DNA of 64,000 bases from a virus (UHGV-0036853); one strand, 5' to 3'. Counted from the first letter of the stretch, positions 6-51,420 are shown. Notes: a model not told the origin generated them from the sequence alone. Program-made: numbers and translations.

Positions 6-23
6 GATAAGTAAGTACTTATA
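6..23. repeat. motif family 1 (ATAAGTAnnTACTTAT-type imperfect palindrome)
   Basis: gataagtaagtacttat; other copies near 3528, 10137, 14851, 17794, 21315, 24750, 28978, 33761, 40675, 42641, 44555, 46064, 51355 and in the cores of palindromes A and B. Confidence 0.6.
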
Positions 24-66
24 TATTTTCAAGAGATAAAAAAGGCGTCCTGTGGACGCCTTGTGT

Positions 67-1140
67 TTACTCTTCTACTGACTCGGTGGGATTGTCTTTT
101 GATCTCCGGTCGTCGATTGCCTGTAAAGCCGCAATGATTTCAGCTAGTGGCTTCTCCCGATACATCTCGACGATCTGTGATTTGGTGTATTTCTTGTCAC
201 CAATTTCTACGCGCCCGCTGGCGTTCTTTGGCAGGTATCCTTCATCCAGCATGTACTCGACGAGCGATTCGATAACGTCGAGGCCACGAGTAGGATCGAA
301 GTAGAATTTCCAGGTGCACTTGCCATACGGTGGTGCAACTTTGTTTTTGATGCACTCTGCGCCTACGTCCTGACCGATCTTCTCTTTACCATCCTTCATC
401 ACCGATGCACCGAGACGGATGCGCACAGAAGCGTAAAACTTCGGTGAATCGCCGCCTGGTGACGTCGTAGGGTCGCCAAACATTACACCGATTTTTGTGC
501 GAACCTGATTCAAGAAGATGATGCAGGCGTTATATTTGCGTGCCCACAAAGCCAGAGTGGGGAAGTTCGCGCTCGTCGCACGAGCAAGCGCCGTATTGTC
601 GTTCATGTTTAGCTGATCTTTGTCTTTGGCAGTGCCTTCAGCCATCTTTTCGAACTTCTCGGCTTTGGAGTTCGGAACCATAGACGCAAGTGAGTCAGCC
701 ACGATACAGATAGGTGCTGATTCAGGAATAAGCTCTTCATCACGTACCAATTTAAGTATTGTGCCGATCAACTCTACAGAGTCTTCGAAGGTATCTGGCT
801 GCTTGTATACCCACTGACCGTCATCCTCATCTGCATTCAAGCCATTGGCTACCGCCAGGCCAACGTCAAAACTGTTCTCATGATCGAGGAATACCGCCAG
901 ACCATCTTGTTTCTGAGCGGAGATCATTGCTGCTGTTGCCAAAAAGGTTTTCCCCGCGCTTGGCGGGCCGAATACTTCTACGATACGACCACATGGGAAA
1001 CCGCCATCGTAACGACCGGAAATAGCTTTGTTTAACGGAGGAAAGCCTGTGTCAATCCAATGAGTTACTTTCTGAATTTCGTCGTTGCTACCGATTTTCT
1101 TTTTCAGAGCAAGTGCCAGTGCGGATTTTCCTTTTGCCAT
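67..1140 (-). CDS. RecA-family recombinase
   Basis: Walker A GPPSAGKT; FLNQVRTKIGVMFGDP and GGDSPKFYASVRIRLG align with the RecA core. Confidence 0.85.
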   Translation of the reverse strand: MAKGKSALALALKKKIGSNDEIQKVTHWIDTGFPPLNKAISGRYDGGFPCGRIVEVFGPPSAGKTFLATAAMISAQKQDGLAVFLDHENSFDVGLAVANGLNADEDDGQWVYKQPDTFEDSVELIGTILKLVRDEELIPESAPICIVADSLASMVPNSKAEKFEKMAEGTAKDKDQLNMNDNTALARATSANFPTLALWARKYNACIIFLNQVRTKIGVMFGDPTTSPGGDSPKFYASVRIRLGASVMKDGKEKIGQDVGAECIKNKVAPPYGKCTWKFYFDPTRGLDVIESLVEYMLDEGYLPKNASGRVEIGDKKYTKSQIVEMYREKPLAEIIAALQAIDDRRSKDNPTESVEE

Positions 1141-1142
1141 GA

Positions 1143-1415
1143 TCAGGCTCCTTTTGTTTTGTTGATTCGTTTTAAAGCGGCGGATTCGTCGAATACAATC
1201 GCATCGTGGTTAAGGAGTCTGGATACACGAGCGAGGATTTTTACGACCTGCTCGCTGACTAATCCAAACTCGCGATCTGTCGCTTTAATTCCGGCAGCGC
1301 CTAGAATTGACGGCAGTGCGATGACAGCGTACTCACCGTGATAAAAGACAATCTCTTTTGCCAGTTGGGTAGGGGTGGTTGTAGCGCCATTAATAATCGA
1401 TTTAAGCATTAGCAA
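1143..1415 (-). CDS. hypothetical protein
   Basis: ORF translationally coupled to flanking genes. Confidence 0.35.
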   Translation of the reverse strand: MLMLKSIINGATTTPTQLAKEIVFYHGEYAVIALPSILGAAGIKATDREFGLVSEQVVKILARVSRLLNHDAIVFDESAALKRINKTKGA

Positions 1416-2353: not shown

Positions 2354-2413
2354 CGGTACATTCCTTCCAAAAAGTAAGGCGTCCGTAGACGCCTTACTGG
2401 TCACGTAATGGGA

Positions 2414-3436: not shown

Positions 3437-3553
3437 GTGTTTCTCCTTGTTGTGATTTGGCCGATGGCGCTATGCGCGTTGGGCTTTCGTTCATTCGTGG
3501 CTCTTTCGAGCTGTTAAATGATAGATCAGTACTTACTTATTATCTATCAAAAA

Positions 3554-4694: not shown

Positions 4695-4780
4695 TTCATA
4701 GAGTACGTTTTATCGTATTCTTATTGAATATTGAGCGAGTAAATCTCCTGTTAGGATGTTTTTCTTGAATGGGGTGTAAA

Positions 4781-5107: not shown

Positions 5108-5113
5108 CTAATA

Positions 5114-10074: not shown

Positions 10075-10169
10075 GCGTTTTTCCTTTGTTCTCTAATGAG
10101 CGTTCAACTTCTTATATAAATATATCATTAACTATCATAAGTAGTTACTTATCATTAAGGCTGTTTTAA

Positions 10170-12278
10170 TCACTTCAAAATGATACGAGATAGTTCAGTA
10201 ACTACAGATGAACCAAGACTATCAACGCTCGTTACCAGGGCATGATTTGCGTAAAATCTCTCCGGTGCGTCAGTCATTATGCCAATTGCCATCAAATCAA
10301 TGTCAGTCTGCGTTTCAATTTGCTTCGCAACCGAACGCAAATGAGCGTCAAAACCTCTCCCAACAGCCCACGGCGCGCCATCACTCAGAATAAGCATGAT
10401 CTTCCTGTCCTCCATGCGACCGGAAAATAACGATGCAAGGCTGGCTATGCTTTCACCATCCACGTTATTAAGAAGTGGGAATGTGTAGCCTACGCACCCC
10501 ATACGTGAGCGAACTTCGCGAGAATTTACCTTTTCATTCCAATTTTTGATGATAGGTAGCATTAAAGATTCAAAGCGAGAGAACTCATACTTGACAGCCT
10601 TAAGTTCTCCTGCCGCCATATGACTACCAAATGTAGTGAAGCCGGTGATAATGTTGGGAACATTTATTCGATCAAGGGCATCGGCGATGGTATATGCACT
10701 TGCAAGAGCCAATTGTATCGTTATACCACTCATTGAACCTGATAAATCAATCACTTGTTGAACACAGGCGTTAACGGCTTTAGATTCTTCTTTTTTACGA
10801 AACACGCGATCATCATTCATTGCTAATCTGTAGATACTAGAACCATGAATGCGCCCCCGACGCTGGCCCGGTATAAACTGAACTCTGTTTCTGCTTGCTA
10901 TTGCACGTTCCAGGTCTTTTGCTAGCGTCGACGAAACACCTGACGAAAGATGCTTTTCAATATATTTGTCGAAGAGCTGGTTGCCTTCAGGAACGATGCG
11001 ATAGCGGCTGATTGGATATCCTCCTAAATCAATATCGGAGAATGTTTTAATAAGCCGTTTGATATGGGCTTCTGCCTGATCAATCGAGCCGATGAAGTCG
11101 TATGAGCGATTGTATGGCCTGTATTCGCTTTTCGAGCTTTCTGTTAACTCGCTTTTAATCGTTTCGGATAGAGCATCTTCTGTCATGCCTCCGACTTCAT
11201 CTTCTATGCTATCCAGCTCCTCTAAAGCCTCTTCCAGACTCATTTTTGACGGAGTTGGAATATCTGAAGAGCCGTCTTCTGTCGTTTTTCTTTTTTCGTG
11301 GTCAGCGGTTAATGATTCTGACGCCGCGTTATCAGAAGCATCAGAATCTGATACCTCTTTATCATTTTCTGTATCATCGAATATTGTTTCTGATGATTCA
11401 GAATTATCTGAATCATCACTGTCGTTATTATCATGTTTGTGCTTACTATGTGATTCTGAGTTGATAGATTTGTGATTATCTAACGCTGAGGGTGTCTCAT
11501 GATCTTCGTTGTCTTCATTGTTTTCTCCAGAGGCATCCGTCTGGTCAGCGTCTGAAGGATCGGAAGTTTTTCCCGGAGCTGACTCCTTACCTTTGCTTTC
11601 ACTTTCAGTGTCTTTGAGGATCTTAGCTATGGTCGCAGCCACCTTTACACAATCCTCGGTGCAAGACATGTTACGCACGGCCACATCGATACCATGTTCT
11701 TTTAATAATGAAATTGGTTTCTCAATGACAGGCCAATATTCATCCATGAAATCTACGAACGGTGCTTGGCCATCCCAGGCTCTTACAACCGGACAGAGAA
11801 AGAAGTTTAGAAAAAGCGCGCGCTGATCTTTGCCACAATAAGCAATAGCCTCTGAAGCCTTTGGTTTAAAGACTTTTTCGATAATAAGGCGCTGAGTTGC
11901 CATCAGATTACGTCTTGTTCCGTTAAAGACCTGACCCATTTTTCGCTCGATGAACACGTCTTCTAAGGCATTCCATAGCGACCAGGAAGGAACGCGTCCT
12001 TTTCCTCTCATTTTGTTGGACACACGAATATCGGTAAACAAAATGTGAGCAACCTCATGATCGAGAAATCCGCGCACAGCATTCATCAATGCCGGTGTTG
12101 CGTTATCCGGGATTGATGGGATGTTTACGAGAATTGGCTCTCCATCATCGTTATAGCGTACATAAGCGTCGTCCCCTCGTTCTGCAACAGGGATGTTTTT
12201 ACCTGAAAGGAGAGCGACTACTCGTTTTACACTGTCACGGAAGTCCTGAACCTCTTTGATGGAACGTTTTTTAGACAT
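10170..12278 (-). CDS. CobT-like von Willebrand factor A (vWA) domain protein
   Basis: MIDAS motif DLSGSMSG; long acidic Ser/Asp-rich low-complexity insert (about 11200-11600). Confidence 0.7.
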   Translation of the reverse strand: MSKKRSIKEVQDFRDSVKRVVALLSGKNIPVAERGDDAYVRYNDDGEPILVNIPSIPDNATPALMNAVRGFLDHEVAHILFTDIRVSNKMRGKGRVPSWSLWNALEDVFIERKMGQVFNGTRRNLMATQRLIIEKVFKPKASEAIAYCGKDQRALFLNFFLCPVVRAWDGQAPFVDFMDEYWPVIEKPISLLKEHGIDVAVRNMSCTEDCVKVAATIAKILKDTESESKGKESAPGKTSDPSDADQTDASGENNEDNEDHETPSALDNHKSINSESHSKHKHDNNDSDDSDNSESSETIFDDTENDKEVSDSDASDNAASESLTADHEKRKTTEDGSSDIPTPSKMSLEEALEELDSIEDEVGGMTEDALSETIKSELTESSKSEYRPYNRSYDFIGSIDQAEAHIKRLIKTFSDIDLGGYPISRYRIVPEGNQLFDKYIEKHLSSGVSSTLAKDLERAIASRNRVQFIPGQRRGRIHGSSIYRLAMNDDRVFRKKEESKAVNACVQQVIDLSGSMSGITIQLALASAYTIADALDRINVPNIITGFTTFGSHMAAGELKAVKYEFSRFESLMLPIIKNWNEKVNSREVRSRMGCVGYTFPLLNNVDGESIASLASLFSGRMEDRKIMLILSDGAPWAVGRGFDAHLRSVAKQIETQTDIDLMAIGIMTDAPERFYANHALVTSVDSLGSSVVTELSRIILK

Positions 12279-12295: not shown

Positions 12296-12330
12296 GAAAA
12301 CAAATTGTTTACTAGTGTGTTTAATGTAGC
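12296..12330 (-). promoter_or_regulatory. conserved AAACAAnTTGTTT-type motif upstream of vWA gene
   Basis: motif family 2. Confidence 0.5.
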
Positions 12331-12376
12331 ACTGCGCGAACAGGGAACTAAGCCATTCGCGCAGGGAGAAGAGGGG

Positions 12377-12589
12377 TTAACAGATTCTGACGGCTAAAGA
12401 CCCGGAGCCGGTATTGAGAAGCGTGAAGCGTTTGTTGTTAAGTTCGAATATAAAGCCAGTTGTGTCATTCACACCAACCTGAATCTGCTCATTCGGTAGA
12501 TCGGTGAGGATGTCAGCTACACACTCATCAGCTAATTTCTGTACGTGTCCGATCTCAAGAGCGATTAGGCTGGAAATAGTGGTTTTCAT
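12377..12589 (-). CDS. hypothetical protein
   Basis: ORF only. Confidence 0.3.
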   Translation of the reverse strand: MKTTISSLIALEIGHVQKLADECVADILTDLPNEQIQVGVNDTTGFIFELNNKRFTLLNTGSGSLAVRIC

Positions 12590-12840
12590 TCAATCAATCC
12601 ATTCTAACTTATACTATGGTAAGGAATACTACTAAAATTTGTATCAATACTGAATACATCCATATCAGATGCAAGTTAATTTTCTTACCTATTTTGGGCT
12701 AGTTTTTCTCCATGCATGGACCTTTACTCGGTCTTACAAGTGCCTGCCGAAAAAAATGATAATAGCTTTACAACCCTAACCTTTGATGTAATATCGGTAA
12801 GCACTTACCAGAGAGAATTAAACGCGCAAAGGTTGTAACA

Positions 12841-13227
12841 ATGTCTGACAACAAGATTGAATTTATAGAAAGTCGCTATGCTGCTTTTATCGCAGGGCTG
12901 ATTGAATCCTCACCTATGAGTCAGGCCCAAATAGCCAGACTTATTGGTTATAAAAATGCCAACAACCTTTCTTTAATTAAAAGTGGCAAAATTCCTTTGC
13001 CTATCGATAAGGTTCGTCCGTTGGCGCTGGCGCTGGGTATTGAGCCAAGTCGTCTTATGATGATGGTGCTGGAAGAACGCCAACCTGAACTCGCAGCATT
13101 TTTATACAAAGAAGGCACCGCTCCTCTTAACGAGGACGAAAAACAGGTTCTTGCTGCATATAACGAGCGATTCGGTAAAGAGAAAGGCGCATCACAAAAG
13201 GTTGTTGAGGCCATAAAGTCTCTATGA
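12841..13227 (+). CDS. HTH (XRE-like) transcriptional regulator
   Basis: helix-turn-helix signature SQAQIARLIGYKNANNLSLIKSG; convergent with integrase. Confidence 0.55.
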   Translation: MSDNKIEFIESRYAAFIAGLIESSPMSQAQIARLIGYKNANNLSLIKSGKIPLPIDKVRPLALALGIEPSRLMMMVLEERQPELAAFLYKEGTAPLNEDEKQVLAAYNERFGKEKGASQKVVEAIKSL

Positions 13228-14325
13228 AAAATTTACACGAATAAGCTCTGTTGATAGACGATCTCCCTTGAATTTGTGGTCAATTTCGTCTAAATCCGGT
13301 TGCTCTACGATTGATGCGATGTACGTCGAGAAACTTTCTAAGGCGTCTCGCATCTCGTCCATATAATCGTGCCGGTCGTAGACCCGATCTATCCCCTCAA
13401 GACTGTGGTTCATGATTTTGCGTGATACCTCCTGGCTTATGCCTAATGCTGGGAAGTAACTACGCGCAGTACGGCGCAAATCTCGGGGTGTAAATGGCTC
13501 AAGCTCCATCAGTTCTGGTCTTTCCAGAATACGACGTAATGCCTGGGCTATTGCCACTTTGGACATAGGAAGGTCTTTCCCGATTTTTTTATTCGAAGGC
13601 ACGAGCCACTGGCTGTCTTTACCGTATTCGAACAACTCTTCAATGCATGTGCGCATTAATGTGCTTAAAGGCAGCGAATGCTCACGTGCTGACTTGTTTC
13701 TCTTGCCTTGATTCCAAACCCCACGCTTAAGATTGAACTCACTTTTTTTAGCCCGCAGTACTTCGTCAGGTCGTCTTGCTGATACAAGACACAGCCTGGC
13801 CGCCCATTTTGTACCAGCGCACACATTGAAGTAGTCCCATATATTCCAGAACACCCATACCTCTGCGTCGGTCAGCTTCCGCTCGCGAGGTGTGGGCTTT
13901 GCGCCACCGGCAACTTTGTTTAGTGACATATCGTTTAACGGTGACACGTCTATCATCCCCTGGAAGGCGCACCAGCTAAGGAACTGCTTCATCAGAGAGA
14001 AAACGCGGCGGCCCATAACAATTTTGCCATCCAGTATTAGTGGGTTGACCAGTTGGTTCACCATGAACCTATTAATGTCACTTACTTTTACATCGGCAAT
14101 GTGCGGCAAAACATGTATCAAAATACAATGAACAGCGATCTCTGGCCGACGTCTGGTTATCAGCAGAGATAAGCGAGTGAATAACATGAATGCGTCCGAG
14201 AATCTCATATCATTGCTAACCTGCGAGATCATAACGGCCTGCATTTGAGATGCTCTTTCGAGATACTCAATCGCCTCTTTTGAGGTGTTCTCCGCAGCGC
14301 GTGCTCTGTCAAAGCTATTTTTCAT
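13222..14325 (-). CDS. tyrosine recombinase / integrase
   Basis: C-terminal catalytic region with RDLRRTARS, NHSLEG and Y in DRHDYMD. Confidence 0.75.
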   Translation of the reverse strand: MKNSFDRARAAENTSKEAIEYLERASQMQAVMISQVSNDMRFSDAFMLFTRLSLLITRRRPEIAVHCILIHVLPHIADVKVSDINRFMVNQLVNPLILDGKIVMGRRVFSLMKQFLSWCAFQGMIDVSPLNDMSLNKVAGGAKPTPRERKLTDAEVWVFWNIWDYFNVCAGTKWAARLCLVSARRPDEVLRAKKSEFNLKRGVWNQGKRNKSAREHSLPLSTLMRTCIEELFEYGKDSQWLVPSNKKIGKDLPMSKVAIAQALRRILERPELMELEPFTPRDLRRTARSYFPALGISQEVSRKIMNHSLEGIDRVYDRHDYMDEMRDALESFSTYIASIVEQPDLDEIDHKFKGDRLSTELIRVNFS

Positions 14326-14413
14326 ATGACAATCACCGAGTTACGCCGATTCACTGTATAAGTAAACAGTATATTAGGCATAGATTCTTATAGGATCAAG
14401 AGTAAAAGTAACT

Positions 14414-14783: not shown

Positions 14784-14956
14784 AACCTAACAAATACCTT
14801 TATAAATATTGATTCGAACATATCAGACTATACTACAAACAGATTTTTTTGATAAGTATGTAGTAACTTATTGATTGACTGGTAAACAATTGAAGTGATT
14901 ATGACAATAGATTACAGTAAGGATTGCCTTGAAATGTACATTTTATAGAGGTTTTA

Positions 14957-16044: not shown

Positions 16045-16131
16045 TGGCGGAGAGTAATGGAATCGAACCATCATCGCTTGCGCAATGGGACGGTTTTCAA
16101 GACCGCTTGAGCACCATGCTCCCTACTCTCC
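16045..16131 (-). tRNA. tRNA-Ser (anticodon UGA), long variable arm
   Basis: cloverleaf by hand: acceptor GGAGAGT/ACTCTCC, anticodon loop CTTGAAA, T-loop GGTTCGATTCC, encoded CCA. Confidence 0.7.
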
Positions 16132-16799
16132 GGCCGTTGTGGTGGCCGGTACTGAATCTCCGGCATACGGTGCAGCCAATTAGGACTACGGACGATCACC
16201 GCTCGCGAAAGGGAAGATTTGCGGCCGCATTTCCCTAACATCCAAGAAAGCTATCGCATCAGTCTGCGAATCCACCACAACGGAAAGAGCATTCACGTCT
16301 CGCGTGCCACCACGAATGGCAACTCAGAGAGTCGAACTCTGAAAATGCTCTTACCTGTTGTGTGCTGTGTCACTCCCTCCGCTATTACCTGGCTTTGCCT
16401 CGACCTTTTAGGTTGCGTCCGATGATAAACAGGGCTGTCGGAAATTTGTCTGTGACACAGCGATAAGAGAACTCGATGCATTTAAGCCAAGCCCCATATG
16501 GGAAGTTCTCTTATCTGTTGTGCGCTCCGTTTCGTGGAGCTAACGGCGGGTGAACAGGCCGCACCAGGTTGGACATATTTCAGCGTTATGCTGTTGCAAG
16601 AGAGCCAAATTGTGATGGTCGGTGCTGAACTCCGACACAGGGTTGTAGCAAGCCCCGCAAAGCGCGCACTACTGTAGTTGCGGCACATCAGCCTGTGCAT
16701 TCACCACAATGTTGAGAACACTGGTTGTCACGCTGCAACGCAACATTTATTCATAGATTGGGATATGACCCCGTTACGCCAATGTTCTCAATATTATGT

Positions 16800-16875
16800 T
16801 GGTGCCGGTTAACGGACTTGAACCGCTGACCATTCGCTTACAAAGCGACTGCTCTACCAACTGAGCTAAACCGGC
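16800..16875 (-). tRNA. tRNA-Thr (anticodon UGU)
   Basis: acceptor GCCGGTT/AACCGGC, D-arm TAGCTCAGTTGGTAGAGCA, anticodon loop TTTGTAA, T-loop GGTTCAAGTCC, CCA. Confidence 0.75.
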
Positions 16876-16879
16876 AATT

Positions 16880-16966
16880 TGGTGGGGAGTGATGGAGTCG
16901 AACCACCCGAGTCGCAATGACAGTAGATTTACAGTCTACCCCGCTACCCCTACGGACTAACTCCCC
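16880..16966 (-). tRNA. tRNA-Tyr (anticodon GUA), long variable arm
   Basis: acceptor GGGGAGT/ACTCCCC, anticodon arm GTAGA-CTGTAAA-TCTAC, T-loop GGTTCGACTCC, CCA. Confidence 0.7.
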
Positions 16967-16971
16967 TAAAT

Positions 16972-17046
16972 TGGCGATGGTGGGTGGATTCGAACCACCG
17001 ACCAGTTGGTTAACAGCCAACTGCTCTACCGCTGAGCTACACCATC
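16972..17046 (-). tRNA. tRNA-Asn (anticodon GUU)
   Basis: acceptor GATGGTG/CACCATC, anticodon arm GTTGG-CTGTTAA-CCAAC, T-loop GGTTCGAATCC, CCA. Confidence 0.7.
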
Positions 17047-17824
17047 AATTCGGCACTGCCAGTATTTATTACTCAACAGTGCCAATCGCGACGGTTTAGT
17101 TTCTGCCAGGAAACGCACCGCTACTTGCACTTTTCGTTAGTGCCAGACGCTTTCGACTTCGCTCAATAGTAGAAGGCAAACTCTTTAAGTAGATGATGTT
17201 TCTGAGGACAGCACCTACTTTGTAATTTATACAATGTGATGTATGGAATCATTTGTTGTGAAAACAGGCACCAATGGCAACAGTGGTTAAACCTACACAA
17301 CTATTCTGTCTTCACAACGTTGAGGCCACTACTCCGATTGAATGTTTGCCCAACATGTTACATATCAACGCTCGCCGGTATCTCTGTGAATAGAACCTTA
17401 GAATTGATAAAAATGTAATGGCCTCAACGTTGTGTGCTGGCTAACCATACCAGCCGGGCTACGTCGCCGCTTTTTAACCCAGTATAAACGACATAATTGA
17501 ACAAAATGACGTAACAGAATGGGCGGTCAGTGGCTAAGAATCCGGGAGTCATATGGAGTTGAAAATATACCGACCGCCCATTCTGTTACTTCATCGGAGG
17601 GAACACTCATGTTCCCTCCTGCGTTCTGCAATCACACTCGCTCAGTGTGTCCCATTTCGGTAACGAGGCTGGAAACTGACCTCGCTGGTGTTTGGCTTAT
17701 TAGGCTACTGCCAGATAGACTTCTTCGTTTGCACTTGTATTTAAGTTCAAACAGTCGCGTCTCAACGAAAACAAAGTCATCTTATACACAAAAGATAAGT
17801 AAGTAAATACTTATCAATATGTTT

Positions 17825-18115
17825 TTATTCGGTTGTGACTTTTTTGATCAAGGCCACTCTAGGACTAGGTGTTCTTGTAATGGTGGCAGTGAATCGTTTC
17901 GCTTGGATAGTAATGGTTTCGTTCTCCTTAAGTTGCCCGTAGCGAGTTTCCACCAGGGTGCCAAGACGCCACAGACCATCATCGATACGTTTATGACTAG
18001 CAAATTTAATCAGCAACAGTTTTACGACTAACTGACCTACGTAAAAGGCGAATGCGACTCCGGCCGCTAAGAAATAGGTGGCCAACCACCAGTCCCAAGA
18101 AGTTAAATTGCTCAT
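17825..18115 (-). CDS. small membrane protein (hypothetical)
   Basis: N-terminal hydrophobic helix WWLATYFLAAGVAFAFYV. Confidence 0.4.
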   Translation of the reverse strand: MSNLTSWDWWLATYFLAAGVAFAFYVGQLVVKLLLIKFASHKRIDDGLWRLGTLVETRYGQLKENETITIQAKRFTATITRTPSPRVALIKKVTTE

Positions 18116-18260
18116 TTTCTAACCTTTGTTTCATGAACTACCCGATACACACGCTTTCCGATGCACAGTGTTTTGGTTTTAAGTTCCTGCTTAATTAAGT
18201 CACGACAGATGCCGAAGCCGATAAGGAAGCCACCCATAAAAGCTAATGAGATGTATGGAA

Positions 18261-18476
18261 TCATTTTAACACTCCTGATTCTACTAATTGCTGTAGCAAT
18301 ACTTTCCCTTTATCAGTTAACTGGTAGTTGGCCGAACACTTCGTTTCAGAAACGTTTGCAACCAACCCTAACCGCTCTAACTTAGCCCGCGTTTTAGGCT
18401 TCCAGTACTCAGGGAACTCTGACCACTTACTGATTTCATGAAGCGTTTCCTTCTCCCGCTTACTTAATACGATCAT
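18261..18476 (-). CDS. hypothetical protein
   Basis: ORF only. Confidence 0.35.
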   Translation of the reverse strand: MIVLSKREKETLHEISKWSEFPEYWKPKTRAKLERLGLVANVSETKCSANYQLTDKGKVLLQQLVESGVLK

Positions 18477-20437: not shown

Positions 20438-20492
20438 AAATAATCTTGTACTTACCTATCGTTATTTGCGTAAAAAACGACGCGCGGAGAGA

Positions 20493-21275: not shown

Positions 21276-21350
21276 ACCAACTCCTAGCTAACAGATGAAA
21301 GTATTCTTACAGAAAGATAAGTAATCATCTACTTATTTTAGCGGCACTTG

Positions 21351-24747: not shown

Positions 24748-24855
24748 CTGGTAGGTAGTTACTTACTTATCACAATGAGCGGATGATAGCGACTGGTGTC
24801 AGTTTTTGGAAGTGAAAACGGAAGGGAGTTGTTCTGGTGGGTGTCTTTTAAAAGA

Positions 24856-24910
24856 CCTGCTTCCGTATATATATTTAATAAGTTACTTATTATTTAAATA
24901 CAGAAACAGG
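24856..24910. repeat. large imperfect palindrome A with flanking conserved tail (agctgccagaccgg)
   Basis: arms cctgcttccgtatatat / atacagaaacagg around the TAAGTTACTTA core. Confidence 0.7.
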
Positions 24911-24940
24911 TTCTGATTGAAGCTGCCAGACCGGAAGTTG

Positions 24941-28926: not shown

Positions 28927-28995
28927 GAAAAGTCAAATCGGGATGGCGGATTTATATCACATTTCACCCTTTTGTTGTAGGTGTGTACTTACCTA

Positions 28996-29229
28996 TCATT
29001 CAGCATTGCAACGGACTGATGAGAAAGCACCTACTCCTACCCATCGCCAGTTATAGATGCTACCCGCTTTGTATAAGGTATAGTCGTTCACTTTTTTAAC
29101 AGCATATATGGGTATGACTGTCTCCTGTCCACCAATGATAGCCTCACCATAACATATAGGTGTCGGCAATTTCTGGCAGCCAGTAAGAGAGAGAACAACA
29201 GCTATTGTTAGAAATAATCTTTTCATCAT
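28996..29229 (-). CDS. small lipoprotein
   Basis: signal peptide with lipobox LTGC. Confidence 0.5.
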   Translation of the reverse strand: MMKRLFLTIAVVLSLTGCQKLPTPICYGEAIIGGQETVIPIYAVKKVNDYTLYKAGSIYNWRWVGVGAFSSVRCNAE

Positions 29230-33717: not shown

Positions 33718-33809
33718 GTTGAATATGCTCCTTGATTTGGCGGGCTATCCTTGCCCGCCATTAAGTAAGTACATACTTATTTTTACCGATGTAAATATTT
33801 TTTTCTACA

Positions 33810-40618: not shown

Positions 40619-40700
40619 TGTTTCATCCTTGAAATAAGTAGGCGCTAACATCCTGTCAGCGCCACAATGATAGTAAATTAGTACTTACTTATCCAGATAC

Positions 40701-42595: not shown

Positions 42596-42612
42596 TTCTT
42601 GCTCCTACAAAA

Positions 42613-42637
42613 AGGGTGGGCGTATAGCCCACCCTTA
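42613..42637 (-). terminator. intrinsic terminator after capsid gene
   Basis: gggtgggc...gcccaccc hairpin followed by TTTTTGT on minus strand. Confidence 0.7.
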
Positions 42638-42668
42638 AACTTAGATAATTACTTATCTACCGCACTGA

Positions 42669-43544
42669 TTAAATTTTTACATTGGTCAGTGCAGCGATAG
42701 CCTTATCGTGCTTATTCGCCAGAGAGCAGTACCACTTCACACGGGTACGTACTGCGTCTTTGTTCTGTACAGTACCAATGTTTTCAACAACGATACCTGC
42801 GTTATCGCCGCCATACAGACCAGTAACGCCGTTCTCTTCTGACAGATGCAAGCAGTAGATGCTTGCTTTGCCAGCATCGGTCGGGATGAAGTCGTTGATG
42901 ATGAACGGAACGCCGTTATGACACAGCATCGGACGACCGAAGTTCTCCATCATGATTTCAGACGGACCTACATTTACTGTACGCAGCAGCGCACGGTAAG
43001 CACGAAGGTGCTCTGAACGCATCATGATGCAGTCAGCACCAAGATCTTTCACCGCATCGACCAGTTCGTCGAACATAGAGAAAGTCATAGATGCACCGGC
43101 GATATCGATCTTCTGATCTGCGTGCATCAGGCGTGGAATACCGTCGAACGCTTTGTTGTTGGAGCTGGAGTCACCCAAAATCAGGTTGCGGCGGAACGCA
43201 CGAGCCAGACCTTTAACTTTCTGACGAACCTGAATAGCCAACTGGTTATTGGTGTCGGCCATAGTGGTTGCCAGGAATTTATCAACGTCTACGTCACCAG
43301 CCAGAATACGCAGTTTCGCAACGCATTCTTCGAAGGTTGCTGCACCTTCAGGGATGGTGTCGTTAACGTCGATGAAGGTAGCTTCACTCAGCGTTTTTTC
43401 ACGGTTGTACAGATATGCCTTTGAATTAATTTTCATAAAAGGCAGGATGGCAAACAGGTCATCGCGATCGATGATAGTTTCGATCACACCCTGTTCAAGT
43501 TCGTTGTTAGACAGCTTTTCAGCTTCTTCACGCAGTAATGGCAT
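42669..43544 (-). CDS. putative major capsid protein
   Basis: position after scaffold-like protein, followed by strong terminator; no direct fold evidence. Confidence 0.45.
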   Translation of the reverse strand: MPLLREEAEKLSNNELEQGVIETIIDRDDLFAILPFMKINSKAYLYNREKTLSEATFIDVNDTIPEGAATFEECVAKLRILAGDVDVDKFLATTMADTNNQLAIQVRQKVKGLARAFRRNLILGDSSSNNKAFDGIPRLMHADQKIDIAGASMTFSMFDELVDAVKDLGADCIMMRSEHLRAYRALLRTVNVGPSEIMMENFGRPMLCHNGVPFIINDFIPTDAGKASIYCLHLSEENGVTGLYGGDNAGIVVENIGTVQNKDAVRTRVKWYCSLANKHDKAIAALTNVKI

Positions 43545-43569: not shown

Positions 43570-44457
43570 TTACTTAAGTCCAATTTTCCCCAGACCGGAG
43601 GCCAACTTATCCATAGTCGACTTGTTCTTCGGTTGGGATATTGTGTAGGTCGATTTGGAATGTGAGCCTACACCCTGCTTGGCTTCGCTACGCATCAATG
43701 CGTCAGCTTCCGGATCTGCCCGCACAATGCGTTCAATCGCGGATTCAAACGGCAACGGCTTACCTTCACCGTCAACCAGAACAGCTCGTTCTTTATGACC
43801 TGCCGGTTTGTCATAACCCACTACGCTACCGTCTTCACCCACTTCAAAATGAGAACCGTAGATCACGCGGGCTTTTGCCGGAGTCATCAGAACTTTGTCA
43901 CGTAGGAAGAGAGAGTTACTGAAGGAAGCGCCCACGGTCATCTCGACTAATTGAGATTTCAGTGATGCGTTTTCACTTTCCAGTGCTGCATAACGTTCGT
44001 CACGCTGTGCCAGCTCTGCCTGGTGTGCTTCGATCATCTGTTTTTTAACAGCATCGAACTCACCACGACGCTCCAGTTCAGCTTGCTCCGCCTCACGACG
44101 TGCGTTTTCTGCGGCCTGTTCAGCTTCTAAAAGCTGGCGAGCACGCGCCGGGTCGATATCACCGTACTGAGCAAGCTGATCGGCCAATGTGCGCTCTTTC
44201 TCTTTGCGCTTCATGTTCTCTTTCAGCAGTTCAGCACCAGCTTTCTTGGTTTTGCGAAGTTCGACCAGTAACTCTTCATGAGTCATGCCAGCGTATTCGT
44301 CATCACCCTTCGGCTGCTCTTTTTGTTCACCCTGCTTGTCAGGATCTTGTGTACTCTGCTCATTATCAGCAGCTACACCGCCAGCGCCCCCACGCTCATG
44401 CGCTTCAGCAACATCCATCAGACCACGACGGGCCAAAAGCATTTGCCACAGTTTCAT
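43570..44457 (-). CDS. putative scaffolding protein (coiled-coil, charged)
   Basis: E/A/R/Q-rich heptad region between portal and capsid genes. Confidence 0.45.
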   Translation of the reverse strand: MKLWQMLLARRGLMDVAEAHERGGAGGVAADNEQSTQDPDKQGEQKEQPKGDDEYAGMTHEELLVELRKTKKAGAELLKENMKRKEKERTLADQLAQYGDIDPARARQLLEAEQAAENARREAEQAELERRGEFDAVKKQMIEAHQAELAQRDERYAALESENASLKSQLVEMTVGASFSNSLFLRDKVLMTPAKARVIYGSHFEVGEDGSVVGYDKPAGHKERAVLVDGEGKPLPFESAIERIVRADPEADALMRSEAKQGVGSHSKSTYTISQPKNKSTMDKLASGLGKIGLK

Positions 44458-44478: not shown

Positions 44479-46053
44479 TCACTCGTTCTCTTGAGTAGAT
44501 GAGTCCCCATTCCCTCGGGGTTGATCTTGCCCGCTTTCTTGGGCCACACCACGATCATAAGTAAGTACTGACTTATTTTCAAGGGTATTTAGATCATTTT
44601 TTGGCGGAAAATTCAAGAGATCTTTATCAAATTCCTTTTTCATCGCCTCAGTAATGTTCGGGAAAATCTTCTCAATAAGCATTTCCATCTGGTGACGACG
44701 TACAGAGTCCGGTGCCTGAAGTAATGACAGTTTCTCGGCAACAGAAAATTCATCTGTAAGGCCACGAATATCGAAACTTTCTGGATACGCAATTAAAGAG
44801 TGGTCTTCGTCCAGATCTACCCCCATCCATTTCGCAACCAGTAGCATGATTTGGCGTTCAGCCCTTTCCAGACGCTCTGCTTTTGTGACAAGCAAGCTAT
44901 TTACACGCTGGAAGTCATACATTTTTGCGGCACCAGATGAGTTATCGATTCCCTGTGCGTTGTCCTGCTTCGTTCGCTCACCAGCTACACCAACTGAATG
45001 GTAGATTTCGTTAATCACCGTCTTAATCGTAGTGATGATCATCTGAGCTTGTTTCGGGTCTGGTGACAGATAAAACGGCTGGTTTCCACCTTCAGAATCG
45101 TAGGTGAAGACTCGCTTTGTGCCCATTTCAAGCACTTTAGTGTGGTTTTCATCACCAGGTAAAAGCGACTGTACCGGTATAGCCAACTGGCTAAATGTCT
45201 GATCCTGAATAATGGCATCAAGGTTTGACAGATAGTTTGCAACCGCACGATCAAGATAAGCGATATCATCGATCAACGATGGGCTGAAATACGGTGATTC
45301 ACTTTCTCCAATACAATCAACAGGAAACACAGGAACTACGCCGAGATTATGCTCACCGCTATCCTCTAAAATAACTTTTGCCTGACGGCGACCTGCTCCA
45401 CCAGCGCCCTTCTTCACTTCCTCACGGAACAGATACCACTCGTTTTGTGTCCACAGACGATAACGTTGGTATTCCTGACCTGTAGAAGTAAAAGGATCTG
45501 CGTCATCACGAGCGACTTCCACAATTAACGCCCACAACATATTCCCGTCGTCGTCCCATGCCACATCCAGCATTTGCTGAGGTGAAATCCAGTAGGCGTA
45601 GGCGCGAGCATCTTTCTTTTTCTCGTCAGCTACTGACTCAACATCACCACTCATCGTGCTATCGACAACAACCCATATGCGACCGTAAATAGACGACTGC
45701 AAATCAATAGCGGCCATAAATGAGTCAATAGAGGCATTCTGGCGAGTCGCACGTTTCCAGAAATTGCGGATCTGCTCTGGTGCCTCTTCGATATTTCTAT
45801 GAATGTCTTCTTTAAAGAGATATTTGTTGATGAGGTTTACCACCTCACGAGTGTGGTTGAAGCGATAAGCACGTTCAACTCGCTCCTTAAACTCCTGATC
45901 TCCCTCTTTAAAGTAACGAAAGATATTGTCTGTAAACCAACCACGCCCGCCAGCGTAAGTGCTGGCGAGGAAGTCCCAATGTTCTTTTTTCTTTTCGTAT
46001 TCCGGGTGGCGTCGCGCCACCAGATCCTTAATTTGTTTGTCGTTCAATTCCAT
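44479..46053 (-). CDS. putative portal protein
   Basis: 524 aa directly downstream of terminase large subunit. Confidence 0.55.
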   Translation of the reverse strand: MELNDKQIKDLVARRHPEYEKKKEHWDFLASTYAGGRGWFTDNIFRYFKEGDQEFKERVERAYRFNHTREVVNLINKYLFKEDIHRNIEEAPEQIRNFWKRATRQNASIDSFMAAIDLQSSIYGRIWVVVDSTMSGDVESVADEKKKDARAYAYWISPQQMLDVAWDDDGNMLWALIVEVARDDADPFTSTGQEYQRYRLWTQNEWYLFREEVKKGAGGAGRRQAKVILEDSGEHNLGVVPVFPVDCIGESESPYFSPSLIDDIAYLDRAVANYLSNLDAIIQDQTFSQLAIPVQSLLPGDENHTKVLEMGTKRVFTYDSEGGNQPFYLSPDPKQAQMIITTIKTVINEIYHSVGVAGERTKQDNAQGIDNSSGAAKMYDFQRVNSLLVTKAERLERAERQIMLLVAKWMGVDLDEDHSLIAYPESFDIRGLTDEFSVAEKLSLLQAPDSVRRHQMEMLIEKIFPNITEAMKKEFDKDLLNFPPKNDLNTLENKSVLTYDRGVAQESGQDQPRGNGDSSTQENE

Positions 46054-46079
46054 TTGAATAACCTTAGATAATTACTTAC

Positions 46080-47336
46080 CTATCGAGAACCACCAAGAAT
46101 AACACGGTTTTTGACTGGATACCTACGATGTACTGGATAGCCCAATGCGTCTGCACTATGCTCAATGCCACCTGTCTTATCCATATCTCGTGTTCCAGGC
46201 TTGTAGATGACTTTTTCCAGTGAATCAATCAAATGCTTGCACTTCGGATCGATATACAACCGGATATCTCCAGATGCGGTCATCAGCATTCGGTTAACAG
46301 CATTAACACGATCCGCAATTGGCGGGTGCTTTTTCGAATAATCGACACGTAAGAATCCCTTCTCTTTGAAAATGTCGACGTCAGACTCCCCGCGAGCATG
46401 TTGGCGATAAGCACCTGCCGGATCTGGAAATACCGTTATCTGTGATTTCCAGCGCCAGAAGCGTCTCTCAAGCTCATCACAAACCTCTGCCGTGTTAGAG
46501 GAAAAGAGCACCAATTCATCAATTGCCCATAGCTCGCCGTTTGGCTGAGGTTGCAAAATTACGGAAGACATCGGGTCAATGTTGAAGTCCTGTCCTACCC
46601 ATATAGGCAACCGAGGGTTGAATTGAAGCGGTTTAACATGCACGTTACGATCGAACGGGTAGTAAACGCGACCGGACATGTTCTCAAAGCTGGCTAGGTA
46701 CTCCTGAGCGAACGATTTGGGGTCCATATCGTTCTTAGCAGCTTCAATTTCCGCCGTAGGTACAAACGGAGAATCGGCAGTTACAAACTGCCAGCTCTTC
46801 CACTGTCCCTTTCGTTGCAGCTCTACGTTCTGACCTATAGTCCACAGTTTGTGAAATTCCGAGAAGCCTTTTGGCGTTCCAATGATCAGTGCACCGCCGC
46901 GTGTCGATGAAAGAGTTGGTCGTAGTACCTTGTACCAGGTATCAGCCTTCATATCCTGAAATTCATCAAGCACTACAAAATGCAACGCAACGCCGCGCAG
47001 AGTGTCAGGCTTATCAGCACCTTTAAGGGCGATCTCCGAACCGTTCTTCAACACGATTGTCATCGTGGTGTCGTTCTTTTTCCTAACCCACTTACGAGGC
47101 AGAACTTCCTGTAGATCGTCCCACAAAATCTGACGAGCCATCTGATAAGTCGGGGCGACATACCAGACCCTTTGCTTTTTTTCCTTTGCAGCCGCACGAA
47201 TAATAGTTGAGATCGACAACCGGGATTTCCCCCAGCGTCGACCAGCACAAACAACTTTAAATCGATGCGGTGACTGGAAGACTTTCATCTGTCCAGAATG
47301 CAACTGCACAAGACTTAGAGAGGACGGGATTGCCAT
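46080..47336 (-). CDS. terminase large subunit
   Basis: Walker A CAGRRWGKS, Walker B FVVLDEF, C-terminal nuclease-like region. Confidence 0.8.
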   Translation of the reverse strand: MAIPSSLSLVQLHSGQMKVFQSPHRFKVVCAGRRWGKSRLSISTIIRAAAKEKKQRVWYVAPTYQMARQILWDDLQEVLPRKWVRKKNDTTMTIVLKNGSEIALKGADKPDTLRGVALHFVVLDEFQDMKADTWYKVLRPTLSSTRGGALIIGTPKGFSEFHKLWTIGQNVELQRKGQWKSWQFVTADSPFVPTAEIEAAKNDMDPKSFAQEYLASFENMSGRVYYPFDRNVHVKPLQFNPRLPIWVGQDFNIDPMSSVILQPQPNGELWAIDELVLFSSNTAEVCDELERRFWRWKSQITVFPDPAGAYRQHARGESDVDIFKEKGFLRVDYSKKHPPIADRVNAVNRMLMTASGDIRLYIDPKCKHLIDSLEKVIYKPGTRDMDKTGGIEHSADALGYPVHRRYPVKNRVILGGSR

Positions 47337-47968: not shown

Positions 47969-48007
47969 AGATCCCTCTAAAACACACAGAGCGCGTCCAT
48001 GCGCTCT

Positions 48008-48066
48008 AAAACAACTTGTTTACTGCATCTGCTAACCAACTTGTTTTCTGGGGTGTTTAATTAGGT
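48008..48066 (-). promoter_or_regulatory. two motif family 2 copies upstream of terminase small subunit gene
   Basis: aaaacaacttgtttac and ccaacttgttttctgg. Confidence 0.5.
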
Positions 48067-48085
48067 CTGGGCATATCTTACTAAG

Positions 48086-48140
48086 CCTGCTTCCGTATAT
48101 ATTTAATAAGTTACTTATTATTTATATATACAGAAGCAGG
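48086..48140. repeat. large near-perfect palindrome B, second copy of element A
   Basis: arms cctgcttccgtatatat / atatatacagaagcagg around the TAAGTTACTTA core; followed by agctcccagaccg. Confidence 0.75.
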
Positions 48141-48164
48141 TCTTTAAATAAGCTCCCAGACCGA

Positions 48165-48431: not shown

Positions 48432-48440
48432 GGCAAATCC

Positions 48441-49331: not shown

Positions 49332-49993
49332 GAATGGACCTCATCGTGACTACCATTGTGATATTCCACCTTCACGCGTTCTTTGTAGTGCTTGGTGATC
49401 TGCATATCCGGGCGCAGCGCGTTCTTCAGGTCTTCGTGAGTCGTCGCCACCATTACCGTCGCACCAACCTTTCGAGCGGCACGCTGGAGGTTAGACGCCA
49501 CAACCTGAGCGGTTACACGGTCGAGAACAGCGCCGAACTCGTCAGCAGCCCACACTTTAGCGCCTGACTCAATCAGTTTGGCAATCTTGAGACGATATTT
49601 CTGGCCGTCTGACATTTCAGAAGGCTTGCGAACAAACAGATATGCATCGTTCAGACCAGCCATAGATAACAACCCAAGCGCATCACTGGTCGTTTTGCCC
49701 AACTGATCGATGACGTTAACCTCATTATCGAAGGTAAAATCATCGATGGAGGCTACAGACAGCCCTTCATCCTTCATCTGTCGTTGCAACTCGCGCAGCA
49801 CAACGGATTTGCCGGAACCGGATTGGCCGGTGATGTACACCACATCGCCCTGCTTCACTTCCAGCTCCAGATTGTCGTAAAGCGTCCACTCTTTTTCGTC
49901 CAGGCCAAGCCCGAACGACTCAGCGATTTCCAACGTGCGCGTGGTTTTATTTACGCGTGTCTGAAACGATACGTTGATGATGTATTTGCTCAT
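49328..49993 (-). CDS. stand-alone ABC-type ATPase
   Basis: Walker A GQSGSGKS, signature-like MSDGQKYR, Walker B VWAADEF, H-loop TTHE. Confidence 0.7.
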   Translation of the reverse strand: MSKYIINVSFQTRVNKTTRTLEIAESFGLGLDEKEWTLYDNLELEVKQGDVVYITGQSGSGKSVVLRELQRQMKDEGLSVASIDDFTFDNEVNVIDQLGKTTSDALGLLSMAGLNDAYLFVRKPSEMSDGQKYRLKIAKLIESGAKVWAADEFGAVLDRVTAQVVASNLQRAARKVGATVMVATTHEDLKNALRPDMQITKHYKERVKVEYHNGSHDEVHS

Positions 49994-50691
49994 GCAGCCA
50001 TCTCCCCGGAAGAGATCTTCTCCGCATATGCCACAAATGCGTCTACCCCGCTTTCTCCCGTCATTTCTTCCATGTGGGCAAGCAAATCACCAACAACAAT
50101 GGCAGAGCCAGCAGGGAGCGTTTTAAAGCCCAATACGTCGACAACACGTACTTCTTCCGCTGCAACTTCACGACTGATCTCGGTGTGTTCATCCTTCTGT
50201 CGTTTAGTTTCTTCGCCAAGATCGATAACTAGCGAGTCGGTGTCCATTTCTTCTGTCATACTGCCAACGAGAACATTCAACTCACGCTCTTCAAAGCCGA
50301 AAACCTCGATATCGTCCAGAACAAGCGACTCAAGCTCTTTCTGTAGCTTAATTGCATCGTAATCAATGCTGGCAAGTCGGTTATCTTCAAGGCGCTTCGC
50401 ACGAACCTCGTCATCACTGAGATCATCGCGAACAATAACCGGTACGCGCTCAAGTCCAGCAAAAATTGCAGCCTCACGGCGGCCGTGGCCAGTAATAATT
50501 ACGTCGTTCTTATCGACCGTAATTGGCTGGTCAAATCCGCGCTTTTTAATGGCTGCGGCTAGATCTCGGATCTGCTGTTCATCATGCTTTTTGGCATTCA
50601 TCTCATAGGGAATAAGATCTGCCGGGTCGCGATATACGATTTCAAACTTTTTGGTCATTACATACGCTCCTTGTAGTAGTCGACCAGCCAC
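49990..50691 (-). CDS. ParB/Srx-like domain protein
   Basis: ParB N-domain motif ITGHGRREAA. Confidence 0.65.
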   Translation of the reverse strand: MAGRLLQGAYVMTKKFEIVYRDPADLIPYEMNAKKHDEQQIRDLAAAIKKRGFDQPITVDKNDVIITGHGRREAAIFAGLERVPVIVRDDLSDDEVRAKRLEDNRLASIDYDAIKLQKELESLVLDDIEVFGFEERELNVLVGSMTEEMDTDSLVIDLGEETKRQKDEHTEISREVAAEEVRVVDVLGFKTLPAGSAIVVGDLLAHMEEMTGESGVDAFVAYAEKISSGEMAA

Positions 50692-51356
50692 ACCAGAGCC
50701 TCACCAGCGTTCTCCATTTCATTACCGGTGTTAATAGCCTGTTCTTTGATGATGTTTTTTATGGTTTCTGCAACACGATCTGACGCATCGAAAGTTACTT
50801 TGAAGCGCATGGTCTGATGTTCCGCACCCACACGTTCGGTTTTCTCCCGTTTGTCGGTATCGACAGGCTCATCACTACCACGAGACAACGCCTCCAGTGC
50901 TTCAAGGTCGATTGCCGCCTCTTTTGCTAAAACCATCGAGATTTCGTCGTCATACGGGGCGATTTCAGACAGTTGATAGTCAAGTTCTGACTGAATTTCT
51001 TCAATGAAGCGTTGCAATGCGATTTGGTCGTCTTCACCGTATCGCTCGTTGTCCACCAGTGACATCTGTTTAGCTACGACATCGCTAATTTTGCCCACAG
51101 AAAGCACTGGAACCGTTGAAATTCCTTGCTCAATAGCGGCACGCCAGCGATGTTCACCGCCGAGGATTTCAAAAAATCCATCTTCAAGTTCACGAGCCAA
51201 AATTGGCTTAAAAAAGCCCAATTTTTCGATAGAACCTTTCAGTTTTTCAAAATTCTGCGCACCAACCGAATTGGTGTTCCAGGTATTCGGGCGAAGGTTG
51301 GCAACATCAACCTGCAAAATCGTGATTTTTACATCCATTTTATTGCTACAATCCAC
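50658..51356 (-). CDS. ParB/Srx-like domain protein
   Basis: ParB N-domain motif ILGGEHRWRAA. Confidence 0.65.
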   Translation of the reverse strand: MDCSNKMDVKITILQVDVANLRPNTWNTNSVGAQNFEKLKGSIEKLGFFKPILARELEDGFFEILGGEHRWRAAIEQGISTVPVLSVGKISDVVAKQMSLVDNERYGEDDQIALQRFIEEIQSELDYQLSEIAPYDDEISMVLAKEAAIDLEALEALSRGSDEPVDTDKREKTERVGAEHQTMRFKVTFDASDRVAETIKNIIKEQAINTGNEMENAGEALVWLVDYYKERM

Positions 51357-51420
51357 TAAGTAATCACTTACTTATTATAATAGCCAAATAACATACAAAA
51401 GGCACTAAGGAAAGAGGTTT

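Follow-up and report, generated by a model that had tools for sequence, protein, structure and literature searches.

The 64,000-nt DNA of the virus UHGV-0036853, which we call the window throughout (the whole stretch, at its full length), carries 16-17 copies of a 20-bp palindrome spread over 1-51.4 kb. As judged from sequence comparison, there is about an even chance that these copies are the dispersed operators of a dimeric helix-turn-helix (HTH) prophage repressor encoded by the element itself, the likeliest candidate being a 128-amino-acid protein at 12841-13227. The repeated unit consists of the halves ATARGTAAGT and ACTTACYTAT, that is ATAAGTAAGT and ACTTACTTAT, and all copies align to it without gaps when read on the coding strand.

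The window matches Escherichia phages CMS-2020a and Cyrano (pLF82) at 96-97% identity and Salmonella phage SSU5 at ~80% identity, and is therefore part of an SSU5-like phage-plasmid. Clinical Enterobacterales and Acinetobacter often harbour phage-plasmids of this kind, which carry resistance genes (PMC9600943). The minus strand carries nearly all genes of 1-51.4 kb, a region that is ~90% coding and ~10% non-coding. With gene names taken from the Cyrano annotation, this block comprises recA, SSB, PolIII-alpha, CobS- and CobT-like genes, an integrase, tRNAs, ligase, primase, helicase and ParA, together with the lysis, tail, head, portal, terminase and ParB-like genes.

Number and form of the sites

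The literal pattern ATAAGTANNTACTTAT occurs twice (7-22 and 10137-10152) against 0.00 expected, and ten times against 0.20 when up to two mismatches are allowed. Searching with the 20-mer and at most five mismatches yields 18 matches, which reduce to ~16 distinct sites, where Markov shuffles give 0.2; at most four mismatches leave ten matches against none in the shuffles. A weight matrix with a threshold of at least 14 bits finds 32 matches in the window (both strands and registers counted) against 0.0 expected, and 49 against 0.0 in SSU5, which was kept out of the training of the matrix. Clusters of weight-matrix matches number 20 in the window, 32 in Cyrano and 29 in SSU5. The motif sites score 16-29 bits with a median of ~25, leaving aside the centres of two large palindromes considered below.

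In a position matrix built from 54 sites the consensus reads A T A R G T A A G T followed by A C T T A C Y T A T, with agreement between mirror positions, weak extension of the palindrome to A(-3) and T(+23), and conserved half-site cores lying ~10 bp, or one helical turn, apart. Conservation is greatest at T2, A3, T18, A19, G5 and T6. The downstream half is slightly richer in mismatches than the other (1.85 vs 0.98) and the site is otherwise symmetric. A hairpin with a variable spacer, ATAAGTA-N2-8-TACTTAT, could be ruled out as the unit: there is one ungapped 20-bp palindrome, and the apparent 16-bp copies are 20-mers with mismatches. The sites in the window are as follows.

7-26, minus strand: after recA; coding strand ATATATAAGTACTTACTTAT; 25.8 bits; lies beyond the recA terminator (62-42), in the spacer of TTGAAA-17-TATCAT, which it fills.
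3521-3540, minus strand: between the UvsY-like and SSB genes; ATAAGTAAGTACTGATCTAT; 25.8 bits; within the sigma-70-like TAGATA-17-TATCAT; the orthologous SSU5 site is identical at 19 of 20 positions.
10133-10156, minus strand: between the CobT-like and CobS/MoxR-like genes; 18.3 bits; register ambiguous by 4 nt.
12793-12812, no strand assigned: weaker site at the HTH gene promoter; perfect core GGTAAGCACTTACC (12796-12809); seven mismatches to the 20-mer; directly after the -10.
14852-14871, no strand assigned: in a divergent intergenic region; ATAAGTTACTACATACTTAT; 23.4 bits.
17795-17814, minus strand: upstream of the tRNA cluster; ATAAGTATTTACTTACTTAT; 29.2 bits; 20 of 20 positions identical in SSU5.
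20440-20459, minus strand: between two small replication-module genes; ATAGGTAAGTACAAGATTAT; 20.9 bits.
21317-21336, minus strand: just after the primase gene; ATAAGTAGATGATTACTTAT; 21.6 bits.
24751-24770, minus strand: heading the helicase-primase operon; ATAAGTAAGTAACTACCTAC; 27.1 bits.
28977-28996, minus strand: upstream of the holin/lysis genes (named from Cyrano); ATAGGTAAGTACACACCTAC; 23.8 bits.
33761-33780, minus strand: between the tail protein J and tail-fibre genes; ATAAGTATGTACTTACTTAA; 27.2 bits; followed by a GC-rich hairpin.
40673-40692, minus strand: between minor tail genes M and L; ATAAGTAAGTACTAATTTAC; 26.2 bits; followed by a TATCAT hexamer and a GC-rich hairpin (40663-40641).
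42637-42660, minus strand: just after the major capsid gene; 15.6 bits (Cyrano orthologue 21 bits); precedes a terminator-like hairpin (42634-42618).
44557-44576, minus strand: within the portal gene, at its 3' end; ATAAGTCAGTACTTACTTAT; 28.8 bits; 20 of 20 positions identical in SSU5.
46064-46083, minus strand: filling the 26-nt gap between the large terminase and portal genes; 24.6 bits; its TAG is the terminase stop codon.
51356-51375, minus strand: between the UvsW-like helicase gene and the ParB-like operon, which diverge; ATAAGTAAGTGATTACTTAG; 25.6 bits.

The original prediction had put about 16 copies across the genome, mostly between genes, and both parts hold: 16-17 sites stand against ~0.2 expected in shuffles, and 16 of the 17 fall in the non-coding ~10% of the sequence. 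The places it named are likewise right, namely after recA (7-26), between the capsid and Ig-like genes (42637-42656), between terminase and portal (46064-46083), before the helicase operon (24751-24770) and near the tRNAs (17795-17814), as is the copy inside the portal gene, where the only frame of the motif free of stop codons is used to encode I-S-Q-Y-L-L-M. Sites fill many short intergenic gaps across early and late genes, precede early-type and late-type genes alike, and at several places are separated from the start codon by only 10-17 nt; the stretch from 51.4 to 64 kb has no site. Of 22 Cyrano sites, 14 start at most 18 nt past the upstream stop codon and four supply the stop codon itself.

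A possible second intragenic site of 13.3 bits is seen within the CobT-like gene (11464-11483), and SSU5 has a site of 19.9 bits (43661-43680) at a comparable position in its CobT-like gene, the correspondence being judged without alignment. Several sites of the structural module have a GC-rich hairpin 2-10 nt downstream (33730-33760, 40641-40663 and 42618-42634). The one after the capsid gene (42618-42634) has a T-run and is terminator-like; those at 33730-33760 and 40641-40663 are without a T-run and would stand at the 5' terminus of a transcript that began at the site. The tRNA cluster itself (16045-17046, minus strand) comprises four genes (Ser, Thr, Tyr, Asn), and unrelated coliphages, vB_EcoM-Ro157c2YLVW and D6 among them, have parts that match this segment at 94-95% identity.

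The palindrome behaves as a DNA site

Across the ten mirror pairs of the palindrome G-U combinations show no excess (42, vs 40 for A-C), and the purine or pyrimidine at position 4 does not covary with that at position 17 (Fisher p = 0.23); base-pairing is therefore not the conserved property. Because the halves vary independently, the likely reader is a protein dimer and the palindrome a DNA site rather than an RNA hairpin or cruciform. The RNA hairpins predicted at the sites have A/U-rich stems of 0 to -8.3 kcal/mol and no U-run, which rules out intrinsic (Rho-independent) termination. Terminator-like matches in the window include hairpins beside three of the sites (62-42, 40663-40641 and 42634-42618) but never the motif palindrome.

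Action at the level of RNA, whether as a processing hairpin, a terminator or a translational stop cassette in three frames, is accordingly the least probable explanation we considered. Placement just past stop codons, as in the Cyrano figures above, would suit it, and the TAAGTAAGTAA-type consensus has stop codons in two or three frames. Against it stand the weakness of the hairpins, the lack of compensatory changes and of any sense-strand G-U preference, the presence of a site in a divergent promoter region (12793-12812), and the best-conserved positions, which exceed what stop codons need. Of the two functions originally suggested for the motif, a processing signal thus finds no support, the stems being weak, without a U-run and without sense-strand pairing preference. 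A genome-wide binding site is favoured, as far as sequence can indicate, by the independent variation of the halves, conservation above that of the flanks and retention at syntenic places in distant relatives.

Conservation in phage-plasmids and absence from a lytic cousin

At 12 sites with an SSU5 orthologue the sequences are 85% identical, against 69% in the 40-nt flanks (p = 1e-7). More distant phage-plasmids, located through the portal protein, bear the same or a closely similar motif, and the excess over shuffled sequence called for by the original prediction is large in the window, in SSU5 and in the Moellerella, Acinetobacter and Aeromonas elements.

Klebsiella pfekpn2511-2: portal identity 72%; same motif.
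Moellerella pW1-b: ATARGTA-N6-TACYTAT; 25 clusters against 0-3 matches in shuffles.
Acinetobacter p5759_1: portal identity 52%; ATTAGTAAGC followed by GCTTACTAAT; 33 copies against ~0.7 in shuffles.
Aeromonas pKAM329_1: portal identity 55%; ATCAGTAART followed by RYTTACTGAT; 31 copies against ~0.9 in shuffles.

The relatives hold ~25-33 motif copies per whole genome. Their core AGTAAG..CTTACT is constant and the outer positions vary by lineage. Sites recur at syntenic junctions: terminase/portal (also in Klebsiella, Acinetobacter, Aeromonas and Moellerella), CobT/CobS (also in Acinetobacter and Aeromonas), after the tape-measure gene, before the tail-tube gene, and upstream of the ParB-like operon, where a site is present in every phage-plasmid lineage examined.

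The lytic Pseudomonas phage nickie (50% portal identity) has the core genes of the phage-plasmids in the same order, both ParB-like genes included; the block of helicase, ParB, ParB-Srx and ABC-ATPase genes upstream of the terminase is common to both. We found no motif at the syntenic junctions of nickie, and k-mer, exact inverted-repeat and dyad counts revealed no dyad enriched above shuffles anywhere in its genome; applied to four phage-plasmids, this dyad count picks up the motif in every one.

This absence bears directly on the ParB-like proteins (50658-51356 and 49990-50691), one of which might read the motif as a dispersed loading site and act as a global regulator or DNA organiser in the manner of KorB or VirB. 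Palindromic sites of 13-20 bp are typical of ParB and KorB proteins and the motif falls in that range; both proteins have a ParB N-terminal domain, and the constant site directly upstream of their operon would be apt. Yet nickie has both genes in the same place with neither the motif nor any enriched dyad genome-wide, and in the phage-plasmids the sites avoid the plasmid-maintenance region, so that we regard a ParB-like reader as improbable.

A candidate reader of the motif

Every Cyrano open reading frame (ORF) with blastp homologues in both the Acinetobacter and the Aeromonas element also has one in nickie, except ParA and the XRE-type HTH protein. As the only DNA-binding protein conserved among the phage-plasmids and absent from nickie, the HTH protein is the candidate reader of the motif. 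The gene and its promoter are located as follows.

12841-13227, plus strand: XRE/Cro-CI-type HTH protein, 128 amino acids; CYRAN_45 of Cyrano, 'putative repressor'; candidate binder of the motif.
12767-12794, plus strand: sigma-70-like promoter of the HTH gene, TTTACA-16-TAATAT.

The HTH gene is convergent with a tyrosine integrase gene (13222-14325) and divergent from the CobT operon. Its product has weak Pfam matches to HTH_19 and HTH_37 and belongs to PHROG 8, 'transcriptional regulator'. The structural model, with a predicted local distance difference test (pLDDT) score of 85-89 over residues 11-80 and a helical C-terminal part, shows a predicted HTH domain of the Cro/CI/C-protein type; the closest folds are C.BclI, C.AhdI, 434 Cro, P22 c2, HigA and SinR, with target template-modelling (TM) scores of 0.7-0.8 and E-values above 0.001.

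By tblastn the HTH gene is found in 996 plasmid records and the portal gene in 966, with the same spread of taxa, and all HTH homologues listed with long contigs in a large protein database lie on contigs of ~100-116 kb. The Acinetobacter and Aeromonas homologues, at 33-38% identity, adjoin the CobT-like gene. The predicted recognition helix (the KNANNLSLIKSGK region) is identical in E. coli, Salmonella and Yersinia, which have the same motif; Acinetobacter and Aeromonas have a different helix, and the outer positions of their motif differ as well. The HTH promoter is followed at once by the core GGTAAG(C/T)ACTTACC. Both promoter and core are kept across four genera, in plasmids of E. coli, S. 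Typhi, Y. pestis and Klebsiella, while the remainder of the spacer diverges. Upstream of the HTH gene Moellerella has a motif-like site too (23.8 bits, 73 nt from the start codon), as does Aeromonas, and in Acinetobacter a degenerate site lies inside a TTGGGT-17-TATAAT promoter upstream of the gene.

The parallel between protein and motif also speaks against a host DNA-binding protein common to Gammaproteobacteria, an explanation we hold to be very improbable. Conservation of the core across elements from different host genera would be expected of such a reader, but the outer positions shift with the lineage of the element, alongside the HTH protein, and the motif is unlike the familiar LexA, Fur, CRP, TyrR and TrpR consensuses; in particular it has no CTGT/ACAG arms of the LexA (SOS) box CTGT-N8-ACAG. 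A search with a 30-nt consensus found no chromosomal copy among 5,426 complete E. coli genomes, and its 940 matches, in 252 of these genomes, are all on plasmids of ~105-117 kb.

Two further candidates were set aside. Tyrosine-recombinase sites were dropped, because ~25 recombination sites per replicon would presumably be unstable. A phage sigma factor was rejected as well: the Acinetobacter element has a gene annotated as of the sigma-70 family, and tblastn together with a profile from eight homologues gave no sigma-factor homologue in the E. coli, Salmonella, Klebsiella, Aeromonas and nickie sequences. This annotated gene (Acinetobacter baumannii p5759_1, 17690-18355) lies between the CobS-like and PolIII-alpha genes and has only nine homologues in a large protein database.

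Relation of the sites to promoters

The motif is not itself a family of sigma-70 promoters: a -35/-10 pair occurs at only 3-5 sites, and -35 scores average below zero, with no difference between orientations. Only at 7, 3521 and 44557 does the palindrome lie in the 17-nt spacer of a near-consensus promoter, the last site filling the spacer of TTGAAA-17-TATGAT ~100 nt ahead of the next gene. Even so, motif sites account for 5 of the 13 sigma-70-like matches that the coding strand has in 1-51 kb, and some link between motif and promoters remains. A directional -10 beside the palindrome, as suggested by the appearance of ...CTTAC-TATAAT in Acinetobacter, was not borne out, the antisense flank being equally -10-like; in the window and in Acinetobacter the -10-likeness of the flanks is the same on sense and antisense strands (p = 0.78 and 0.91), and therefore reflects A/T-rich palindromic flanks, not direction. 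In the window at large, sigma-70-like matches are rarer than in shuffled sequence (17 vs 30.1 in 1-20 kb and 10 vs 29.8 in 20-40 kb).

These observations bear on the strongest rival, an activator-dependent promoter element of the P1 Lpa kind, in which a phage activator would bind the palindrome in place of a -35 and a -10-like hexamer at its downstream edge would drive each lytic unit. TATCAT-, TATGAT- or TATAAT-like hexamers abut the palindrome at many sites; most sites lack a -35, as activator-dependent promoters do; the coincidence with predicted promoters just described would be expected; and the GC-rich hairpins at 33761, 40673 and 42637 begin where a transcript would start. SSU5, moreover, retains all its sites without the HTH protein, and the 11 Lpa-dependent late promoters of P1 provide a precedent (PMC10695390). 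The -10-likeness is nevertheless equal on both strands and the -35 scores alike in both orientations, several sites lie as close to the start codon as the 10-17 nt noted above, a terminator (42634-42618) directly follows one site, and early-type as well as late-type genes have the same motif ahead of them. The comparison brought to light no conserved activator peculiar to genomes with the motif, the conserved core proteins being common to nickie, which has no motif. Because of the strand symmetry, the lack of a conserved factor specific to motif genomes and the absence of the motif from nickie, we rate an activator lower than the HTH repressor and think it rather unlikely.

A proposed silencing network

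Under the repressor reading, the HTH protein would bind as a dimer to ~25 sites scattered through a one-directional lytic block that covers replication, recombination, nucleotide metabolism, packaging, head, tail and lysis, and in the plasmid-prophage state would occupy these sites and silence the block. Where the palindrome lies in a -35/-10 spacer (7, 3521 and 44557), binding would block initiation; in short gaps right after stop codons a bound dimer may serve as a roadblock or shut off a weak promoter. Autorepression would go through the weaker core site at 12796-12809, which lies over the predicted transcription start of the HTH gene. The case that the HTH protein binds the motif, and that binding is repressive, is circumstantial on both counts.

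Several observations weigh against this reading. Most sites have no -35 and the -10-like hexamers are symmetric, so that promoter occlusion is demonstrable at few sites only, and sites inside apparent operons (CobT/CobS and terminase/portal) would need many internal promoters or a roadblock. The site at the HTH promoter matches the 14-bp core only, and its Acinetobacter counterpart is degenerate. SSU5 has 29 good sites and no HTH homologue, which means either a recent deletion or that the sites serve another function or a second protein. It is without the integrase, HTH regulator and small-ORF module of ~1,000 related plasmids (SSU5 ~42600-42760 vs window 12300-14330), and 88 nt upstream of the CobT-like gene it loses its homology to a pHCM2-like plasmid (93.6% identical). 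The abstract of one report calls SSU5 virulent (PMC5427195); taken, unconfirmed, from that abstract, virulence would fit loss of the repressor.

A second palindrome family counts against it too. The sequence AAACAAnTTGTTT has 13 copies in the window against 0.65 expected, at 12298, 23974, 26004, 48009, 48034, 57904, 58389, 59139, 60042, 60527, 61723, 62401 and 62452. Copies precede the CobT-like, helicase, ParA and small-terminase genes, ~20 nt before the start codon, and likewise many small genes across 57.4-62.5 kb, a region without the 20-bp motif; one copy is 21 nt upstream of ORF 57401-57883, a 'transcriptional regulator/repressor' in Cyrano and SSU5. No enrichment was found in the Acinetobacter or Aeromonas relatives, and the family is enterobacterial only. 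At least two regulons are thus present in the element; AAACAAnTTGTTT fronts key operons and another putative regulator, and the master immunity system could be either of the two.

Beyond the window itself, we tentatively suggest, while thinking it less probable than the operator reading, that a palindromic 'stoperator'-type silencing network, made up of the motif and an XRE-type protein, separates a supergroup of temperate phage-plasmids from its lytic cousins. The lifestyle would then have arisen, or be maintained, by a small HTH gene and 25-33 operators at nearly every operon boundary, and loss of the HTH gene, as in SSU5, would yield a virulent phage. Just as tentatively, the supergroup may take in the SSU5, pHCM2, pMT1 and pKpn types together with the Acinetobacter 'AB' and Aeromonas types, the lytic cousins being Nickievirus-like phages with the same ~40 core genes in the same order.

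Large palindromes

The original prediction had also placed the motif at the centre of two large palindromes, and this stands only loosely: the outer six bases of each arm are common to motif and centres, and the latter score no more than 13-15 bits.

24871-24897, no strand assigned: centre of the 24.9-kb large palindrome; ATAAGT-T-ACTTAT (24878-24890); 13.3 bits.
48099-48125, no strand assigned: centre of the 48.1-kb large palindrome, upstream of the small terminase gene; ATAAGT-T-ACTTAT (48106-48118); 15.4 bits.

These outermost six bases per arm are all that the centres have in common with the motif. In Klebsiella the homologous palindrome keeps its arms and does not keep the centre ATAAGT-T-ACTTAT. 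The centres are probably an element separate from the motif. The two large palindromes (~24830-24930 and 48060-48150), which are near-identical, bracket the lysis, tail, head and packaging module; they have inner arms CCTGCTTCyGTATAT..., outer arms GGTCTGGG/CCCAGACC and an A/T-rich centre.

Comparison with known systems

We found no published account of lysis-lysogeny control in SSU5-like phage-plasmids, nor the motif sequence or an SSU5-group repressor or operator in the literature. The kind of system is known; the operator of the SSU5-like family, its conservation across phage-plasmid groups and the candidate regulator appear undescribed. A defined operator and candidate repressor would offer a handle on the induction, curing and engineering of SSU5-like phage-plasmids, and the motif a sequence signature by which intact members may be recognised. 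The arrangement would also be a case of one small regulator and many seeded sites turning a lytic genome design into a plasmid prophage.

In phage P1 the C1 repressor is a protein of 283 amino acids that binds as a monomer. Its 22 operators, dispersed over the P1 genome, have a 17-bp asymmetric consensus, ATTGCTCTAATAAATTT (PMC8546580). The likeness lies in one element-encoded repressor with ~20 operators (here ~25-33 sites) on a ~100-kb plasmid prophage, acting on many lytic units and on its own gene. Here, however, the site is a 20-bp palindrome of unrelated sequence and the candidate a small XRE-type HTH protein, and the motif lies among the structural genes too, which in P1 are under indirect control through Lpa. 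The L5/L1 protein gp71 has two to three dozen sites in short intergenic gaps genome-wide, its stoperators being 13 bp long, asymmetric and oriented with transcription; Brown et al. in 1997 reportedly thought that bound L5 repressor stops transcription passing them. That repressors of the mycobacteriophage L5 type bind multiple operators is documented (PMC1934351). Many repressor sites in short gaps across the genome, structural genes included, are what the two systems have in common, whereas the motif here is symmetric and without orientation. Because the P1 C1 and L5 operators are asymmetric and the proteins unrelated, the system described here belongs to neither family.

Each of the 11 late promoters of P1 couples a -10 to an inverted repeat of 9 bp and needs Lpa (PMC10695390). 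They resemble the present sites in having an inverted repeat next to a -10-like hexamer, mostly no -35 here and none in P1, and repetition before many operons. They differ in that the P1 repeat is only 9 bp and serves late genes alone, whereas here the -10-likeness is symmetric and genes of replication and nucleotide metabolism are included. The HTH protein and ParA are the only conserved proteins found to be specific to motif genomes, and no Lpa-like factor was identified among them, no search with the Lpa sequence having been made. In plasmid RK2/RP4, palindromic KorA operators scattered over the plasmid coordinate many operons, with autoregulation (PMC2665229). KorA and KorB thus share with our proposal the scattered palindromic operators and the coordination of many operons, but they are of other protein families with other operator sequences, and here the ParB-like proteins occur in the motif-less lytic relative as well. 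The operators of Cro/CI and C-proteins, which are also the closest folds, offer the nearest likeness at the level of a single site, with a small HTH dimer, a 14-20-bp palindrome, half-sites one helical turn apart and autoregulation of the protein's own promoter; those systems have 1-6 operators in one control region, in contrast to the ~25 that lie over 85 kb here.

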